10,458 nt of DNA from assembly GCA_000004985.1 (NCBI GenBank), contig GG739024.1; one strand, given 5' to 3'. Both the position numbers and the translations under genes were made by a program. Below, piece after piece: positions 1,023 to 10,458 of this stretch; the stretch's first letter is position 1; each line of letters starts with the position of its first letter. A model generated the notes under the pieces. It was not told the origin of the DNA, did no database searches, and saw only the letters and a program-made list of their open reading frames with translations. The DNA is from Naegleria gruberi (Eukaryota).

Positions 1023-1456
1023 TTACCAACGTTCAGCAACTTGTGGATTGTTGATAGCTGCCAAAAGTTCCTTAATTCTTGCATCGGTTTGCACGTTAAC
1101 TCTTGAATAAATGTATGGATTGGTGAGTTTCAAATCTTGAATGCTCTCCTTTAATTGTTCGAATTCTTTCAAAACCTGTCTCAATTCATCCTTTGATCTA
1201 CACAAGTAATCTTTACAGAGAATCTTTTGGAAAACTAATCTGGCATCATTATCATATTTTTCCATATAAAAGTCCATTGCTTCTAAACACTTATCAGCAT
1301 ACCCAAGAGCAATCATTCCATTAGCAGCATAACAAAGAGAATCAATAACAAAACTTGGATCCACAACTGATTCAAATCTTTCAACAGAAGAATAGGCATT
1401 GACTGCTAATTCATACATGTCACAAGCATAATAGCAACCTCCCTTAATCATATAAC
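1023..1456 (-). CDS. C-terminal fragment (at least 144 aa) of an alpha-helical repeat, TPR-like protein. The 5' part of the gene lies in assembly gap 1.
   Basis: The minus-strand ORF stays open from the gap edge (the codon continues into the Ns at 1455-1457) to TAA, which is the reverse complement of 1023..1025. Helical hairpin-like segments are present (CYYACDMYELAVNAYSSVERFE, IALGYADKCLEAMDFYMEKYDNDARLVFQKIL). Codon usage is consistent. Family is not assignable by eye. The M at 1451 is only the first in-frame Met after the gap, not the start. Confidence 0.55.
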
Positions 1457-2661
1457 NNNNNNNNNNNNNNNNNNNNNNNNNNNNNNNNNNNNNNNNNNNN
1501 NNNNNNNNNNNNNNNNNNNNNNNNNNNNNNNNNNNNNNNNNNNNNNNNNNNNNNNNNNNNNNNNNNNNNNNNNNNNNNNNNNNNNNNNNNNNNNNNNNNN
1601 NNNNNNNNNNNNNNNNNNNNNNNNNNNNNNNNNNNNNNNNNNNNNNNNNNNNNNNNNNNNNNNNNNNNNNNNNNNNNNNNNNNNNNNNNNNNNNNNNNNN
1701 NNNNNNNNNNNNNNNNNNNNNNNNNNNNNNNNNNNNNNNNNNNNNNNNNNNNNNNNNNNNNNNNNNNNNNNNNNNNNNNNNNNNNNNNNNNNNNNNNNNN
1801 NNNNNNNNNNNNNNNNNNNNNNNNNNNNNNNNNNNNNNNNNNNNNNNNNNNNNNNNNNNNNNNNNNNNNNNNNNNNNNNNNNNNNNNNNNNNNNNNNNNN
1901 NNNNNNNNNNNNNNNNNNNNNNNNNNNNNNNNNNNNNNNNNNNNNNNNNNNNNNNNNNNNNNNNNNNNNNNNNNNNNNNNNNNNNNNNNNNNNNNNNNNN
2001 NNNNNNNNNNNNNNNNNNNNNNNNNNNNNNNNNNNNNNNNNNNNNNNNNNNNNNNNNNNNNNNNNNNNNNNNNNNNNNNNNNNNNNNNNNNNNNNNNNNN
2101 NNNNNNNNNNNNNNNNNNNNNNNNNNNNNNNNNNNNNNNNNNNNNNNNNNNNNNNNNNNNNNNNNNNNNNNNNNNNNNNNNNNNNNNNNNNNNNNNNNNN
2201 NNNNNNNNNNNNNNNNNNNNNNNNNNNNNNNNNNNNNNNNNNNNNNNNNNNNNNNNNNNNNNNNNNNNNNNNNNNNNNNNNNNNNNNNNNNNNNNNNNNN
2301 NNNNNNNNNNNNNNNNNNNNNNNNNNNNNNNNNNNNNNNNNNNNNNNNNNNNNNNNNNNNNNNNNNNNNNNNNNNNNNNNNNNNNNNNNNNNNNNNNNNN
2401 NNNNNNNNNNNNNNNNNNNNNNNNNNNNNNNNNNNNNNNNNNNNNNNNNNNNNNNNNNNNNNNNNNNNNNNNNNNNNNNNNNNNNNNNNNNNNNNNNNNN
2501 NNNNNNNNNNNNNNNNNNNNNNNNNNNNNNNNNNNNNNNNNNNNNNNNNNNNNNNNNNNNNNNNNNNNNNNNNNNNNNNNNNNNNNNNNNNNNNNNNNNN
2601 NNNNNNNNNNNNNNNNNNNNNNNNNNNNNNNNNNNNNNNNNNNNNNNNNNNNNNNNNNNNN
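1457..2661. other. Assembly gap, 1205 N.
   Basis: Contiguous run of n. The non-round length suggests a scaffolding estimate. The X-filled ORFs 1444..2694 and 1448..2665 are artefacts. Confidence 0.99.
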
Positions 2662-2695: not shown

Positions 2696-3238
2696 TCAAC
2701 CCTTCTTCATCAAGACATATGACTTCATACCAACATTTGATTTGAAGAATCTAACTTGCATGTTAACTGGATCATTAGTTTTTGGAAAGGTTTTGTAACA
2801 AAAATTAATGATATCACAAACTTCAACAAATAAGTGATTAGTTTCCAATTGAACAGGAGTAGGATGATTTCTACGATATTCAATAATATTTTCAGTTAAT
2901 TTCTTAAATTTGTCCTCAAGCACTTGATAATTTTTGATCAATTCATTCTGTTCTTGTTCGGAATAAACTGCTTTCTCTGCTGCTTGTTGTTTAGCCTTTT
3001 TCAAATCAAAGAACATTTTACTACTTGTTGTATGATAATTTCTTCTATTTGCAATTTCCATTGAAAAGTTTAATTGATGATGCTTTCCGACATTGATCAG
3101 TGGTACGGAATTAAAATTAATCATCATCAATCCACAACTACCACCAACAAGAATAGAACCATTCTTGAGAGATGATGAGGATCCTCGAGAAGCAGTAATA
3201 ATTGATGATGAGAGAACCTTGTTGGCAAGTGTTTTCAT
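2696..3238 (-). CDS. Hypothetical protein, 181 aa, starting MKTLANKVLSSS. N-terminus is basic and hydroxyl-rich (possible mitochondrial presequence), followed by a short hydrophobic stretch and a helical K/E/Q-rich C-terminal half.
   Basis: Minus-strand ORF 2696..3319 ending TGA (reverse complement of tca at 2696..2698). The preferred start is the ATG at 3236..3238, which sits immediately downstream of an A10-AA-A8 tract in an excellent A-rich context. The upstream 27 codons of the track ORF (..FTKKIKKKM) are simply the poly-A tract being translated. The N-terminus MKTLANKVLSSSIITASRGSSSSLKNGS has no acidic residues. ILVGGSCGLMMINFNSVPLI is hydrophobic. Codon usage is good (ggt, aga, caa, ttg). 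Confidence 0.5.
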   Translation of the reverse strand: MKTLANKVLSSSIITASRGSSSSLKNGSILVGGSCGLMMINFNSVPLINVGKHHQLNFSMEIANRRNYHTTSSKMFFDLKKAKQQAAEKAVYSEQEQNELIKNYQVLEDKFKKLTENIIEYRRNHPTPVQLETNHLFVEVCDIINFCYKTFPKTNDPVNMQVRFFKSNVGMKSYVLMKKG

Positions 3239-3260
3239 TTTTTTTTTAATTTTTTTTGTA
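3239..3260. promoter_or_regulatory. Poly(dA:dT) tract (T10-AA-T8 on the + strand) immediately 5' of the minus-strand start codon at 3238. Likely a promoter or 5'UTR nucleosome-excluding element.
   Basis: Homopolymeric dT tracts are seen directly in the sequence. Position is relative to the ATG at 3236..3238. Confidence 0.4.
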
Positions 3261-3713
3261 AATTGGAAATTAACACGAACTTGAATTGATAGGATTTTGT
3301 AAAGTGTTAATCCAATCAATTATTTCAAAAACCATTCATAGGGATATGGAGTTAATAGAAAATAAATGAGAGAATCTCTTGAAGGAAATTCCATGGTAGA
3401 GTGTTGTTGGTGGAAGGTTGCTGAATATCTTGGCCAACTTTTGAACTAAAAGAACAAGATGAACAGTAGTGTTAGATTACATTATAGACATGTATTTATT
3501 CATGTCTTGATGAAGAACGATCTAGTAGATGATGAATGATTAATGTTAGGAAGCATGTGAAAATTCAATTTGGCAATCTTTAGAAACTGTTGGAAAAACA
3601 TCGCCAAAATATCCTTGCTGATGTGGTACAATAGTAAATCTTTGTCTTCCTCTCGAAATTGACCAAGTTTCCAAAAGGTGCAAATGTTAATTCTTTGGAT
3701 GACCTTGTAAATT

Positions 3714-4570: not shown

Positions 4571-4942
4571 TTATTTTGATTCAGTGATAGGAGCTACAAT
4601 TAATGTATTTTCATCTTCCTTTGATAAACTCAATTTGATTTCTAAAGTATTCTCATTAATGTTTGAATGGAAATCTTGTTGTTTTGCGTTCATTACAATG
4701 GACAAAGCGTTCAGAGGAAGTTTCTTTTCTAATAATGGCTTCACAATTTCTACTATGCAGGAAATACAAGTAGTTCCTGTCATTATTTGAGCCATCGGTG
4801 TGCTTAGATCCTCAAGAGATGGAAAGAAGGTTACTGTAAACATAACACCGGTTTCTTCCTTGATGTGCTCGATGAATTGATCAACAGCTCTTTCCATTTT
4901 CCAATTCCTAATACTCTTACCAATAGAGGTTGCAATTATCAT
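4571..4942 (-). CDS. Small protein, 123 aa, with a pattern compatible with a Roadblock/LC7-like (LAMTOR/dynein light chain) fold. This is a hypothesis only.
   Basis: The complete minus-strand ORF (ATG is the reverse complement of 4940..4942, with an in-frame TGA 13 codons upstream) has balanced composition and good codon usage. The plus-strand ORFs covering the same bases (4530..4790, 4865..) are F/S-rich and look like antisense noise. AVDQFIEHIKEETGVMFTVTFF resembles the N-helix plus first beta-strand of Roadblock proteins (compare [21 protein letters not shown] in LAMTOR5). The C-terminal EIKLSLSKEDENTLIVAP resembles the terminal strand (compare LRIRSKKNEIMVAP in DYNLRB). The resemblance was judged by eye. 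Confidence 0.5.
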   Translation of the reverse strand: MIIATSIGKSIRNWKMERAVDQFIEHIKEETGVMFTVTFFPSLEDLSTPMAQIMTGTTCISCIVEIVKPLLEKKLPLNALSIVMNAKQQDFHSNINENTLEIKLSLSKEDENTLIVAPITESK

Positions 4943-4987
4943 GTCATCAGAGATGTTTTTGGAAATTCTTGGTGTTTCAAATCAAAT

Positions 4988-7900
4988 NNNNNNNNNNNNN
5001 NNNNNNNNNNNNNNNNNNNNNNNNNNNNNNNNNNNNNNNNNNNNNNNNNNNNNNNNNNNNNNNNNNNNNNNNNNNNNNNNNNNNNNNNNNNNNNNNNNNN
5101 NNNNNNNNNNNNNNNNNNNNNNNNNNNNNNNNNNNNNNNNNNNNNNNNNNNNNNNNNNNNNNNNNNNNNNNNNNNNNNNNNNNNNNNNNNNNNNNNNNNN
5201 NNNNNNNNNNNNNNNNNNNNNNNNNNNNNNNNNNNNNNNNNNNNNNNNNNNNNNNNNNNNNNNNNNNNNNNNNNNNNNNNNNNNNNNNNNNNNNNNNNNN
5301 NNNNNNNNNNNNNNNNNNNNNNNNNNNNNNNNNNNNNNNNNNNNNNNNNNNNNNNNNNNNNNNNNNNNNNNNNNNNNNNNNNNNNNNNNNNNNNNNNNNN
5401 NNNNNNNNNNNNNNNNNNNNNNNNNNNNNNNNNNNNNNNNNNNNNNNNNNNNNNNNNNNNNNNNNNNNNNNNNNNNNNNNNNNNNNNNNNNNNNNNNNNN
5501 NNNNNNNNNNNNNNNNNNNNNNNNNNNNNNNNNNNNNNNNNNNNNNNNNNNNNNNNNNNNNNNNNNNNNNNNNNNNNNNNNNNNNNNNNNNNNNNNNNNN
5601 NNNNNNNNNNNNNNNNNNNNNNNNNNNNNNNNNNNNNNNNNNNNNNNNNNNNNNNNNNNNNNNNNNNNNNNNNNNNNNNNNNNNNNNNNNNNNNNNNNNN
5701 NNNNNNNNNNNNNNNNNNNNNNNNNNNNNNNNNNNNNNNNNNNNNNNNNNNNNNNNNNNNNNNNNNNNNNNNNNNNNNNNNNNNNNNNNNNNNNNNNNNN
5801 NNNNNNNNNNNNNNNNNNNNNNNNNNNNNNNNNNNNNNNNNNNNNNNNNNNNNNNNNNNNNNNNNNNNNNNNNNNNNNNNNNNNNNNNNNNNNNNNNNNN
5901 NNNNNNNNNNNNNNNNNNNNNNNNNNNNNNNNNNNNNNNNNNNNNNNNNNNNNNNNNNNNNNNNNNNNNNNNNNNNNNNNNNNNNNNNNNNNNNNNNNNN
6001 NNNNNNNNNNNNNNNNNNNNNNNNNNNNNNNNNNNNNNNNNNNNNNNNNNNNNNNNNNNNNNNNNNNNNNNNNNNNNNNNNNNNNNNNNNNNNNNNNNNN
6101 NNNNNNNNNNNNNNNNNNNNNNNNNNNNNNNNNNNNNNNNNNNNNNNNNNNNNNNNNNNNNNNNNNNNNNNNNNNNNNNNNNNNNNNNNNNNNNNNNNNN
6201 NNNNNNNNNNNNNNNNNNNNNNNNNNNNNNNNNNNNNNNNNNNNNNNNNNNNNNNNNNNNNNNNNNNNNNNNNNNNNNNNNNNNNNNNNNNNNNNNNNNN
6301 NNNNNNNNNNNNNNNNNNNNNNNNNNNNNNNNNNNNNNNNNNNNNNNNNNNNNNNNNNNNNNNNNNNNNNNNNNNNNNNNNNNNNNNNNNNNNNNNNNNN
6401 NNNNNNNNNNNNNNNNNNNNNNNNNNNNNNNNNNNNNNNNNNNNNNNNNNNNNNNNNNNNNNNNNNNNNNNNNNNNNNNNNNNNNNNNNNNNNNNNNNNN
6501 NNNNNNNNNNNNNNNNNNNNNNNNNNNNNNNNNNNNNNNNNNNNNNNNNNNNNNNNNNNNNNNNNNNNNNNNNNNNNNNNNNNNNNNNNNNNNNNNNNNN
6601 NNNNNNNNNNNNNNNNNNNNNNNNNNNNNNNNNNNNNNNNNNNNNNNNNNNNNNNNNNNNNNNNNNNNNNNNNNNNNNNNNNNNNNNNNNNNNNNNNNNN
6701 NNNNNNNNNNNNNNNNNNNNNNNNNNNNNNNNNNNNNNNNNNNNNNNNNNNNNNNNNNNNNNNNNNNNNNNNNNNNNNNNNNNNNNNNNNNNNNNNNNNN
6801 NNNNNNNNNNNNNNNNNNNNNNNNNNNNNNNNNNNNNNNNNNNNNNNNNNNNNNNNNNNNNNNNNNNNNNNNNNNNNNNNNNNNNNNNNNNNNNNNNNNN
6901 NNNNNNNNNNNNNNNNNNNNNNNNNNNNNNNNNNNNNNNNNNNNNNNNNNNNNNNNNNNNNNNNNNNNNNNNNNNNNNNNNNNNNNNNNNNNNNNNNNNN
7001 NNNNNNNNNNNNNNNNNNNNNNNNNNNNNNNNNNNNNNNNNNNNNNNNNNNNNNNNNNNNNNNNNNNNNNNNNNNNNNNNNNNNNNNNNNNNNNNNNNNN
7101 NNNNNNNNNNNNNNNNNNNNNNNNNNNNNNNNNNNNNNNNNNNNNNNNNNNNNNNNNNNNNNNNNNNNNNNNNNNNNNNNNNNNNNNNNNNNNNNNNNNN
7201 NNNNNNNNNNNNNNNNNNNNNNNNNNNNNNNNNNNNNNNNNNNNNNNNNNNNNNNNNNNNNNNNNNNNNNNNNNNNNNNNNNNNNNNNNNNNNNNNNNNN
7301 NNNNNNNNNNNNNNNNNNNNNNNNNNNNNNNNNNNNNNNNNNNNNNNNNNNNNNNNNNNNNNNNNNNNNNNNNNNNNNNNNNNNNNNNNNNNNNNNNNNN
7401 NNNNNNNNNNNNNNNNNNNNNNNNNNNNNNNNNNNNNNNNNNNNNNNNNNNNNNNNNNNNNNNNNNNNNNNNNNNNNNNNNNNNNNNNNNNNNNNNNNNN
7501 NNNNNNNNNNNNNNNNNNNNNNNNNNNNNNNNNNNNNNNNNNNNNNNNNNNNNNNNNNNNNNNNNNNNNNNNNNNNNNNNNNNNNNNNNNNNNNNNNNNN
7601 NNNNNNNNNNNNNNNNNNNNNNNNNNNNNNNNNNNNNNNNNNNNNNNNNNNNNNNNNNNNNNNNNNNNNNNNNNNNNNNNNNNNNNNNNNNNNNNNNNNN
7701 NNNNNNNNNNNNNNNNNNNNNNNNNNNNNNNNNNNNNNNNNNNNNNNNNNNNNNNNNNNNNNNNNNNNNNNNNNNNNNNNNNNNNNNNNNNNNNNNNNNN
7801 NNNNNNNNNNNNNNNNNNNNNNNNNNNNNNNNNNNNNNNNNNNNNNNNNNNNNNNNNNNNNNNNNNNNNNNNNNNNNNNNNNNNNNNNNNNNNNNNNNNN

Positions 7901-8700
7901 NNNNNNNNNNNNNNNNNNNNNNNNNNNNNNNNNNNNNNNNNNNNNNNNNNNNNNNNNNNNNNNNNNNNNNNNNNNNNNNNNNNNNNNNNNNNNNNNNNNN
8001 NNNNNNNNNNNNNNNNNNNNNNNNNNNNNNNNNNNNNNNNNNNNNNNNNNNNNNNNNNNNNNNNNNNNNNNNNNNNNNNNNNNNNNNNNNNNNNNNNNNN
8101 NNNNNNNNNNNNNNNNNNNNNNNNNNNNNNNNNNNNNNNNNNNNNNNNNNNNNNNNNNNNNNNNNNNNNNNNNNNNNNNNNNNNNNNNNNNNNNNNNNNN
8201 NNNNNNNNNNNNNNNNNNNNNNNNNNNNNNNNNNNNNNNNNNNNNNNNNNNNNNNNNNNNNNNNNNNNNNNNNNNNNNNNNNNNNNNNNNNNNNNNNNNN
8301 NNNNNNNNNNNNNNNNNNNNNNNNNNNNNNNNNNNNNNNNNNNNNNNNNNNNNNNNNNNNNNNNNNNNNNNNNNNNNNNNNNNNNNNNNNNNNNNNNNNN
8401 NNNNNNNNNNNNNNNNNNNNNNNNNNNNNNNNNNNNNNNNNNNNNNNNNNNNNNNNNNNNNNNNNNNNNNNNNNNNNNNNNNNNNNNNNNNNNNNNNNNN
8501 NNNNNNNNNNNNNNNNNNNNNNNNNNNNNNNNNNNNNNNNNNNNNNNNNNNNNNNNNNNNNNNNNNNNNNNNNNNNNNNNNNNNNNNNNNNNNNNNNNNN
8601 NNNNNNNNNNNNNNNNNNNNNNNNNNNNNNNNNNNNNNNNNNNNNNNNNNNNNNNNNNNNNNNNNNNNNNNNNNNNNNNNNNNNNNNNNNNNNNNNNNNN
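4988..8700. other. Assembly gap, 3713 N.
   Basis: Contiguous run of n. The X-filled ORFs 4865..8767, 4930..8724 and 4941..8705 are artefacts. Confidence 0.99.
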
Positions 8701-8701
8701 T

Positions 8702-9409
8702 TTAAGTCCTCATTGCCTTCATAAAGTAATTTCTCCTCTCCTCAGTAATTGTGAATGGTTTTTCTAATTGCTCTGGTAATGCCTCTACCAGTGCTTGAAT
8801 GATTGGAAGGAGAACCTTATCAGATTCAATAGATTTCGGAATTTGAATTGAAGTTAGAACGGCTTTGTCATTCTTATCATCCACTTGTTGAATCATGGTT
8901 GCAATTACTGTAGAATATCCTCTCACCCTAACAAAAACAATTGTTTCCATATCAATATCACCCCCCTCAATATCCAAGAAAAAGCAATCAGGAAAACAGT
9001 TATTCATCTCGAAATAGTAAACATCATCATTGGCCACATACTTGTTGGTCTCACCAGAACTGAGCCACTTTCCCCAAGTTGACAACAATTGCTCATCTCG
9101 TTTTTCATACTTTGAAAGAGCTCTCGATACTTTCTTTTCTGCTATTGAGGATTTTTTATCCTCAGTTGATGTATTTGATGTATTTACAGGATCTTGTTCT
9201 TGTTTTGTTTGAATATGATGAGAGGATTTTTCTGCTGATAGTGATGATGACGAAGCTTGTTTTACCTCCTCCTTCTTTGCCTCGGTATGTTGCTTTTGAT
9301 CGTTCTTTGAAACACTCGATCTCAGCACCTTCTTTGGTTTTTCAGTGGAAATCCTTTGAGGTTCTTCAACATTCTTCAATTGCTTTTGTGTTGAACAGGC
9401 TGAACCCAT
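8702..9409 (-). CDS. Protein of 235 aa with an N-terminal dual-acylation motif (MGSACS: Gly2, Cys5, Ser6), a K/S/E-rich low-complexity linker and a C-terminal globular domain of about 120 aa of unrecognised family.
   Basis: Uninterrupted minus-strand ORF. ATG is the reverse complement of 9407..9409, in the context aaaagATGg. TAA stop is the reverse complement of 8702..8704, directly abutting gap 2. MGSACS fits the N-myristoyltransferase consensus M-G-x-x-x-S/T, with Cys5 available for palmitoylation (SH4-like). Residues 10-110 are basic/Ser-rich (KPKKVLRSSVSKNDQKQHTEAKKEEVKQASSSSLSAEKSS). The C-terminus has an alternating hydrophobic pattern (TIVFVRVRGYSTVIATMIQQ, VLLPIIQALVEALPEQL). All 14 Gln codons are CAA/CAG. 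Confidence 0.6.
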   Translation of the reverse strand: MGSACSTQKQLKNVEEPQRISTEKPKKVLRSSVSKNDQKQHTEAKKEEVKQASSSSLSAEKSSHHIQTKQEQDPVNTSNTSTEDKKSSIAEKKVSRALSKYEKRDEQLLSTWGKWLSSGETNKYVANDDVYYFEMNNCFPDCFFLDIEGGDIDMETIVFVRVRGYSTVIATMIQQVDDKNDKAVLTSIQIPKSIESDKVLLPIIQALVEALPEQLEKPFTITEERRNYFMKAMRT

Positions 9410-9718
9410 CTTTTCTAATATCTACGAATAACTTTGCAAAATACAACAGTGAACCTTTTTTTTTAAGCAGAGTGAGAGATGATGGCTAGTGAGTGTATTG
9501 AGGCAATTTTTTTAAAGTTCCTTCCGAGAAGTTGAACACTCTTTTGGTACTTCTGAACTCATTAAGAGAAATTTTTGACTGTACGTGTTCTTAAATTCCT
9601 TTTTGTTAAAGTAGTGTTGATGACGTATTGCTGGTGATGCTATTAAATATAATGGAGATGACAATTTTCTGAGTATAGTACTCAATTATGCCATCAGAAA
9701 GAGATTAATTATACATCA

Positions 9719-9728
9719 CCTATAAGGC
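9719..9728 (+). promoter_or_regulatory. TATA-like element (TATAAG) about 75-80 bp upstream of the EML start codon.
   Basis: tataaggctctcccgcc begins at 9721. Spacing to the ATG at 9801 is typical for yeast-like promoters. Sequence-only inference. Confidence 0.3.
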
Positions 9729-9800
9729 TCTCCCGCCAAAATTAGATGAACTTAAAGTACAAATATTTGAGCAGAGATAAAAACAACCAAACTGAAAAAA

Positions 9801-10090
9801 ATGTCTTCAAAACAAATCGATAAATACCCAAGGTTCTTGAAAACAACTCATCCACCTCCAAACTCATCGGGATTGATGGAATCAAATCCTGAGAAGCCAT
9901 TATCCAAGCTAAAGATTGAATATATTCATGGATGCTCAAAGAAGGGTTGTTATGGAAACGTGTTTCATGTTGATGATGAACAGCATTTAGTCTATCCTGC
10001 TGCTGGTTGTGGGGTAGTGCTTAATGTTGAGGATAACACTCAAAAGGTATTCTGCAAGCATGATGATGATGTTGTTGCTTTGGCTAAACA
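9801..10090 (+). CDS. EMAP-like (EML/EMAP family) microtubule-associated WD-repeat protein, exon 1. N-terminus plus the HELP motif.
   Basis: ATG in the context aaaaaaATGtct. IEYIHGCSKKGCYGNVFHVDDEQHLVYPAAGCGVVLNVEDNTQKVFCKHDDDVVALAK aligns to the EML HELP / first propeller blade consensus (..WVYGYRGRDCRNNLY.L..GEIVY..A.V.VLYNV....QR.Y.GH.DDI.CLA..). The exon ends at ..aaaca|GTATGT. Confidence 0.8.
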
Positions 10091-10144
10091 GTATGTTGTT
10101 GATATCAAATTGTTATATTATTGACACCCTATTATTAACAACAG
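10091..10144 (+). other. Spliceosomal intron of 54 nt, phase 2, within the EML gene.
   Basis: Donor GTATGT is at 10091. The acceptor ..tattaacaacAG ends at 10144, with a TAYTAAC-like branch sequence (tattaac) about 7 nt upstream of the AG. The track's in-frame TGA at 10122..10124 lies inside the intron. Splicing joins ..HDDDVVALAK to HPNGRYFASGQMGKDD, reproducing the conserved EML segment (..DDILCLAIHPDRV.VATGQVGKD). Confidence 0.7.
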
Positions 10145-10458
10145 TCCAAATGGTAGATACTTTGCTTCGGGGCAAATGGGAAAGGATGATATGATTTACA
10201 TTTGGGACAGTCACCAACCTGAGGCAGGTCCAATTAAGGCACTCAAAACAAACACCCAATTCAAAAATGGAGGTGTGTTAACTTGTTGCTTTTCAACCGA
10301 AGGATCCTTACTAGCCTGTGTTGGTGGTAGTCCTAAAATGAACATTATTTTAATTTATGATTGGAATAAGGGAACATGTCTTGCCAATGTGAAAGGAACT
10401 AATGAGGAAGTATATGCTTTATGTTTTTCAAAGAGATGACAATAATTTGACTTGTGTG
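10145..10458 (+). CDS. EML/EMAP-like protein, exon 2 (partial; continues beyond the window). WD blades. Contains an apparent +1 frameshift at the T5 run 10424..10428.
   Basis: (H)PNGRYFASGQMGKDDMIYIWDS..GGVLTCCFS..LLACVGGSPKMNIILIYDWNKGTCLANVKGTNEEVYALCF matches the EML segment HPD..ATGQ..VRVWDS..GVGCLDFS..HLCVIDDSNEHMLTVWDW..KTTNEVVLAVEF. After 10428 the homologous residues (QRDDNNLTCV, about HPTD.NTIITCG) are in the +1 frame. The frame-0 TGA at 10437..10439 is therefore not the true stop. Confidence 0.75.

Follow-up and report, generated by a model that had tools for sequence, protein, structure and literature searches.

The window analysed here is a stretch of 10,458 nucleotides that carries, at its right-hand end, the beginning of a gene of the EML family and, divergently oriented upstream of it, both ends of a second gene. 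N accounts for 4918 of the 10458 bases (47%), in two runs, and the remaining part is AT-rich (GC 0.30-0.37). The longer run is close in size to what the neighbouring gene's 1213 absent codons would occupy (3639 nt plus about 90 nt), and by this fit it looks like a sized scaffold gap. The coordinates of all features are collected in the table below.

Features of the window (positions are those of the whole stretch)
Feature	Position	Strand	Remarks
Intronless ORF, 208 aa	297-923	+	five Sel1 repeats (Pfam 2.3e-36)
ORF beside the first N run	1023-1451	-	without significant Pfam match
N run 1	1457-2661		1205 bases
ORF beside the first N run	2696-3319	-	without significant Pfam match
Neighbouring gene, probable allele of NAEGRDRAFT_73916 (1578 aa)	4574..9409	-	located by tblastn; bridges the 3713-N gap
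N run 2	4988-8700		3713 bases
ORF of the neighbouring gene, NAEGRDRAFT_54743 (235 aa)	8702-9409	-	clusters with NAEGRDRAFT_73916
Intergenic region, 391 bp	9410..9800	.	between the divergent EML gene (+) and its neighbour (-)
Exon 1 of the EML gene	9801..10090	+	aa 1-96 and the CA of the His97 codon
HELP motif, aa 33-72	9897..10016	+	Pfam PF03451, profile positions 2-40 of 40
Intron, GT-AG, 54 nt, phase 2	10091..10144	+	GTATGT...TATTAACAACAG; borders GTATGT...CAG
Exon 2 of the EML gene, incomplete	10145..10458	+	first blades of the N-terminal propeller; runs off the scaffold end
In-frame TGA, apparently spurious	10437-10439	+	stop of the 194-aa model NAEGRDRAFT_76549

The exact product of the Sel1-repeat ORF was absent from the protein collection searched; public annotation either lacks this ORF or models it differently. 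The two minus-strand ORFs around the first gap probably belong to a single gene, as exons or as its ends. Both promoters of the divergent gene pair presumably lie in the intergenic region. A scan of that region for sigma-70 promoters and terminators returned nothing, such signals being irrelevant in a eukaryote. No further N. gruberi introns were recovered within the window; the remaining coding sequence of the neighbouring gene lies within the N gap, and the Pfam matches of the other ORFs were uninformative.

No start codon lies between the upstream stop and the ATG at 9801, and the translation of exon 1 is identical to residues 1-96 of two N. gruberi proteins. One of them (P0001) is a "predicted protein" recorded as EFC35792.1, XP_002668536.1 and NAEGRDRAFT_76549; positions 9801-10090 and 10145-10436, when spliced, encode 194 aa that are 100% identical to it. 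The other (P0270, NAEGRDRAFT_73917) is 684 aa long and bears the UniProt name "Uncharacterized protein FM169". Both the protein and its intron are therefore already present in GenBank/RefSeq, and the Naegleria genome project had curated the full-length allele under the name FM169. Beyond the TGA that closes the 194-aa model, the +1 frame reads DDNNLTCV up to the end of the scaffold. With one base removed at 10433/10434, the corrected product matches residues 1-198 of FM169 at 198 of 198 positions, including FSKDDNNL. FM169 goes on as ...DDNNLYLCGK, so that a T is missing from the window between 10449 and 10450 as well. Sequences similar to the DDNNL stretch are found in orthologues at two related loci (FSSDDSKILLCGK in L001 and FAKDDSCVYLCGK in L004), and the same kind of indels occurs at the other contig edge (8714-8735). 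Two single-base indels within the last 26 nt or so thus account for a false TGA, which we regard, on comparison of the two copies, as an indel artefact.

An alternative is that the window copy is a truly truncated or pseudogenised paralogue whose 194-aa product does end at the TGA at 10437; the public model NAEGRDRAFT_76549 ends there, and the stop is present in the sequence as given. We consider this improbable, because the +1 frame past the stop (DDNNL) agrees with the full-length allele, the shift is compensated by another 1-nt indel 13 nt further on, and missing T's at the opposite contig edge truncate the neighbour in the same manner. Furthermore, synonymous and protein identity is complete over 198 aa, and a piece of 194 aa would be an incomplete propeller that could not fold. 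Reassignment of stop codons of the ciliate type, considered for the TGA/TAA at 10437-10445, was ruled out by the identity of the +1 frame to FM169. We are therefore highly confident that positions 9801-10458 represent the 5' third of an N. gruberi EML gene with a single TAPE domain, a copy of FM169 that carries a true intron and a false TGA.

The full-length N. gruberi copy of the EML gene, NAEGRDRAFT_73917, is encoded on a 250,472-bp scaffold, and its product falls into the same 90%-identity cluster as the window product. NAEGRDRAFT_73916, which has the adjacent locus tag, lies on the same scaffold, and this gene is duplicated too: NAEGRDRAFT_54743 in the window is 96-100% identical to it. 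In a tblastn comparison, residues 1-229 of its 1578-aa protein (P0272) map to 9409..8714 (95.7% identity, with a 3-aa indel) and residues 1443-1578 map to 4981..4574 (100% identity). Since both ends of the protein match around the N run, one gene bridges the gap. The 3-aa indel consists of the residues NTS and lies within a low-complexity stretch. Beside the gap, at 8701-8735, the window reads ATGAAGGCAATGAGGACTTAAA, while the 1578-aa allele needs ATTGAAGGCAATGAGGACTTTAAA (IEGNEDFK). The absence of two T's at this point leads to a false stop, and the public 235-aa model NAEGRDRAFT_54743 is a truncated artefact.

Because the EML gene and its neighbour are both repeated on the 250,472-bp scaffold, the window duplicates the 73916-73917 locus, and we interpret it as an alternative haplotype (haplotig) or an unmerged duplicate of that locus. 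Between the two copies, identity is 100% in the EML part and in the last 136 aa of the neighbour, and 96% in the N-terminal 232 aa of the neighbour. Such mixed identity is consistent with allelic haplotypes, which it favours over plain re-assembly of the same reads. The window copy could instead stem from a recent segmental duplication, but it is probably an allele of NAEGRDRAFT_73917. A redundant haplotig with indels at its edges has in this way given rise to two truncated public models, NAEGRDRAFT_76549 (194 aa) and NAEGRDRAFT_54743 (235 aa).

The published definition of an EML protein asks for WD repeats preceded by a HELP motif (PMC4761370). In the N. gruberi protein the HELP motif is recognised with an E-value of 7.8e-4 and 19.3 bits, under the Pfam cut-off of 27; in four orthologues it scores above the cut-off (36.0 bits in P0073, 33.1 in P0108, 30.0 in P0019 and 28.4 in P0089). 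The N. gruberi segment also aligns with the HELP region of EML1 in the structure 4ci8, so that the motif is identified by position and alignment while remaining sub-threshold by score. Behind it, the window fragment matches the Pfam WD40 model (aa 81-118, E 2e-13) and the Beta-prop_EML model (aa 80-198, E 2.1e-20, profile positions 1-124 of 267). The latter match reaches 73.8 bits against a cut-off of 88.2 because only this portion of the profile lies on the scaffold; full-length FM169 scores 168.5 bits, above the cut-off. The second propeller, which completes the tandem atypical propeller (TAPE) fold and is encoded beyond the end of the window, scores 350.5 bits in FM169 with the Beta-prop_EML_2 model (cut-off 90).

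Structural comparison leads to the same assignment. The best PDB match of the window fragment by sequence is the TAPE domain of EML1 (4ci8, 8.4e-17), followed by CFAP57 (1e-12) and CFAP52 (3e-11). Full-length FM169 matches 4ci8 with an E-value of 4.4e-86 over aa 24-624 and CFAP52 with 1.7e-24, and a profile of the orthologues aligns with 4ci8 end to end (6.8e-135). The AlphaFold2 model of FM169 has a mean pLDDT of 83.6 and a pTM of 0.83, with residues 1-25 and 628-684 disordered. In an overall superposition on 4ci8, which spans 621 columns at 31% identity, it reaches TM scores of 0.82/0.87 and an rmsd of 1.9 Å. The orthologue reconstructed from L001 (632 aa) has animal EML2/3/4 as its best named homologues (about 32% identity over 95-100% of the length, E about 1e-87).

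Certain axonemal proteins with two WD propellers (CFAP52/WDR16, CFAP57, CFAP43/44) resemble EMLs, and the product might be one of these instead. They provide the next-best PDB sequence matches of the fragment (1e-12 to 3e-11), their folds reach TM scores of 0.65-0.73, CFAP52 has a similarly short N-terminus and a length of about 620 aa, and the gene belongs to the FM set. However, the EML1 match of FM169 is some 60 orders of magnitude better than that of CFAP52, the orthologue profile gives only 4e-37 on the axonemal side, and the rmsd of 1.9 Å at 31% identity for EML1 compares with 4-8 Å at 16-20%. Given also that both EML-specific Pfam propeller models exceed their cut-offs in FM169 and that animal EMLs head the named homologues of the orthologue, we consider an axonemal WD protein very improbable. 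The gene is an EML family member by the published definition, of the kind that lacks the coiled coil and has a single TAPE unit, and the full-length product is shown by these comparisons to be essentially a bare TAPE domain, i.e. a HELP motif and two beta-propellers. A preliminary description of this DNA, made from the letters alone, had already recognised an EML-family gene with a HELP motif and first WD blades, and the comparison of the spliced translation with EML proteins that it proposed agrees with that assignment. It made no mention of the in-frame TGA at 10437-10439, of the N runs or of the truncation of the gene by the scaffold end.

The same description had placed an intron at 10091..10144. 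If the intron is retained, an in-frame TGA appears at 10122-10124. Its removal gives ...VVALAKHPNGRYFASGQ..., with the junction VVALAK(CA|T=H)PNGRYFASGQ, and the frame then stays open until the TGA at 10437-10439. The spliced product aligns without gaps across the junction both with EML1 (4ci8) and with the orthologues, and this junction is also the one in the public gene models. Prokaryote-style gene calls in relatives break at this point: two calls that cover exon 1 only (P0089 and P0108) stop at the same residue as exon 1 and end in ...AKQ*, and a third (P0070) begins at exon 2. Additionally, the same codon is interrupted in the same phase at related loci, by an intron of 106 nt in L001/L002, 44 nt in L003 and 41 nt in L004; conservation covers the exons on either side, and the intron interiors are unrelated. 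Taken alone, the splice-signal pattern exceeds chance only weakly (one match against 0.07 expected, with at least one match in 11 of 200 shuffles), and it is the comparative evidence that is decisive. We accept the intron on account of the stop upon retention, the restored alignment, the broken gene calls and the conserved position, three of these four lines being independent of gene models. Judged by them, 10091-10144 appears to be a genuine spliceosomal intron of the U2-type GT-AG class, which related heterolobosean-like genomes apparently inherited at this position. An RNA-seq dataset exists for N. gruberi (PRJEB23822; PMC6142364).

Related loci also differ in their intron content. L001 has two extra introns, at 6645-6699 (55 nt) and 7098-7155 (58 nt), and the position of the first is intronless in exon 2 of N. 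gruberi. The more distant L005 lacks the AK|HPNG intron and carries a 49-nt intron with a GTATGT donor inside the HELP motif (2913-2961).

The GTATGT donor and a branch-like TTAAC near the acceptor, with its A at 10138 and 6 nt from the last intron base, were correctly located by the preliminary description. A second branch candidate, TTGAC, has its A at 10124, at the conventional distance of 20 nt from the acceptor. The preliminary description had taken a GTATGT donor with a branch-like motif so near the acceptor as the rigid splice grammar of intron-poor eukaryotes, a generalisation that the introns compared here do not support. We compared seven introns of this gene alone, from the window and four related loci, six of the seven coming from relatives. 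Their donors are GTATGT (two), GTAAGT (two), GTACGT, GTTTGT and GTAGGT (one each). YTRAY-like motifs lie 4-42 nt from the acceptor and are absent in one of the seven, and YTAAC lies 6-7 nt from the acceptor in two of the seven. Five donor variants and varied branch distances in this small set, drawn mostly from relatives, argue against rigid signals, and N. gruberi has been described as an "intron-rich excavate" (PMC6142364). A literature search on Naegleria splice signals yielded nothing useful. An intron of the Trichomonas/Giardia type, suggested by a ACTAACACACAG motif and about 33% GC, was discarded in view of the exact N. gruberi match.

The gene had further been placed in a budding-yeast-like, intron-poor compact genome, where an EML would be a taxonomically informative anomaly; horizontal transfer or an unusual fungus are examples of what such an anomaly could mean. 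The AT richness of the window and the GTATGT donor with a TAAC motif near the acceptor do fit such a genome. We nevertheless give this reading practically no credence: two genes of the window correspond to exact RefSeq proteins of N. gruberi (NEG-M), the EML product itself being 100% identical to a protein of this member of the Heterolobosea (Discoba). The nearest relatives are the heteroloboseans Pharyngomonas and Percolomonas, and there are zero fungal sequences among the close matches. In Naegleria, a protist that forms flagella, the presence of an EML is nothing unusual. Nor does a GTATGT/TAAC intron in AT-rich DNA identify a yeast.

Only 32 residues precede the HELP motif, close to the approximately 35 of the preliminary description, and they are proline-rich (PRFLKTTHPPPNSSG), which leaves no space for a coiled coil. 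Neither the coiled coil nor the basic linker of the EML1-4 subclass was found, and residues 1-25 have pLDDT values below 50. The coiled coil and basic linker are additions in EML1-4, and EML5/6 are without both (PMC4761370); absence of the coiled coil consequently marks a subclass and does not exclude the protein from the family. In an exhaustive HMMER search, single-TAPE relatives aligned from approximately their first residues. They include two metagenomic proteins (P0019, 634 aa; P0025, 615 aa), a complete transcript ORF of Pharyngomonas kirbyi (P0073, 638 aa) and a Percolomonas protein that matches from its own residue 3 (P0031, 722 aa). The closest of these relatives have a YP.F.K motif 5-10 residues after the start methionine. 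The short N-terminus thus appears to be conserved in other Heterolobosea and in metagenomic relatives.

At the other end of the protein, residues 628-684 of FM169 form a tail (pLDDT about 27) that extends past the end of the EML1 TAPE domain and of all orthologues (QW.I..). The tail may be real, or the gene model may run on through a 3' intron or a stop that was overlooked. On the metagenomic contig L004, a tRNA-Phe (GAA) is encoded at 406-478 on the minus strand, about 110 bp upstream of the start of the EML orthologue.

Microtubule assembly in Naegleria is confined to mitosis and the flagellar apparatus. The label FM presumably refers to a set of flagellar-motility genes from the Naegleria genome project. 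Together with the structural kinship to axonemal propeller proteins, this label suggests a flagellar or basal-body role for FM169. The intact TAPE domain of EML proteins associates with soluble tubulin, its HELP motif being buried between the propellers, and EML1-4 need their N-terminal trimerising coiled coil and basic linker for binding to the microtubule lattice (PMC4761370). As FM169 has neither the coiled coil nor the linker, it should be monomeric and would contact tubulin or microtubules through its propellers. Searches of the literature for Naegleria EML/EMAP proteins, FM169, NAEGRDRAFT_73917 and the accessions found no experiment or expression datum. A tentative and rather doubtful extension of this scheme is that the single-unit, N-terminally naked TAPE protein represents an old, flagellum-linked form of EML, which acts without the coiled-coil and basic module, perhaps by docking its propellers on axonemal or basal-body microtubules in the manner of CFAP52-type proteins, and that animal EML1-4 gained their N-terminal module later. 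With its microtubules restricted to mitosis and flagella, Naegleria would be a clean system for testing this idea, and the conserved bare-TAPE EML of Heterolobosea could serve as a simple model of the TAPE domain alone. The biological weight of the present case is small, and its main value is corrective.

Among known systems, the Naegleria protein is close in plan to the TAPE domain of human EML1 (4ci8) and of EML1-4 in general. Both have the HELP motif followed by two beta-propellers, and they align end to end over about 620 residues at 31% identity; the Naegleria protein differs in having some 30 poorly ordered residues before the fold. Human EML5 and EML6 and short splice variants of EML2 are likewise without the coiled coil and provide a precedent for a TAPE-only EML (PMC4761370). 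However, EML5/6 consist of three HELP-WD units, whereas Naegleria and its heterolobosean relatives have one (615-684 aa). Giants with several TAPE units exist among protists too, as in Diphylleia (P0002, 2703 aa). The Pharyngomonas, Percolomonas and metagenomic proteins (P0073, P0031 and P0019/P0025) and the products of L001-L004 have the same architecture, short N-terminus and YP.F.K motif at 34-55% identity. L001-L004 also have the intron position in common with N. gruberi but differ from it in intron length, donor and branch context, and the C-terminal tail of about 57 aa in FM169 is lacking in the other single-TAPE EMLs. CFAP52, CFAP57 and CFAP43/44 are flagella-associated proteins with a related double-propeller fold and are the next-best structural matches, but their similarity in sequence and fold is much lower, which places the gene outside these families.
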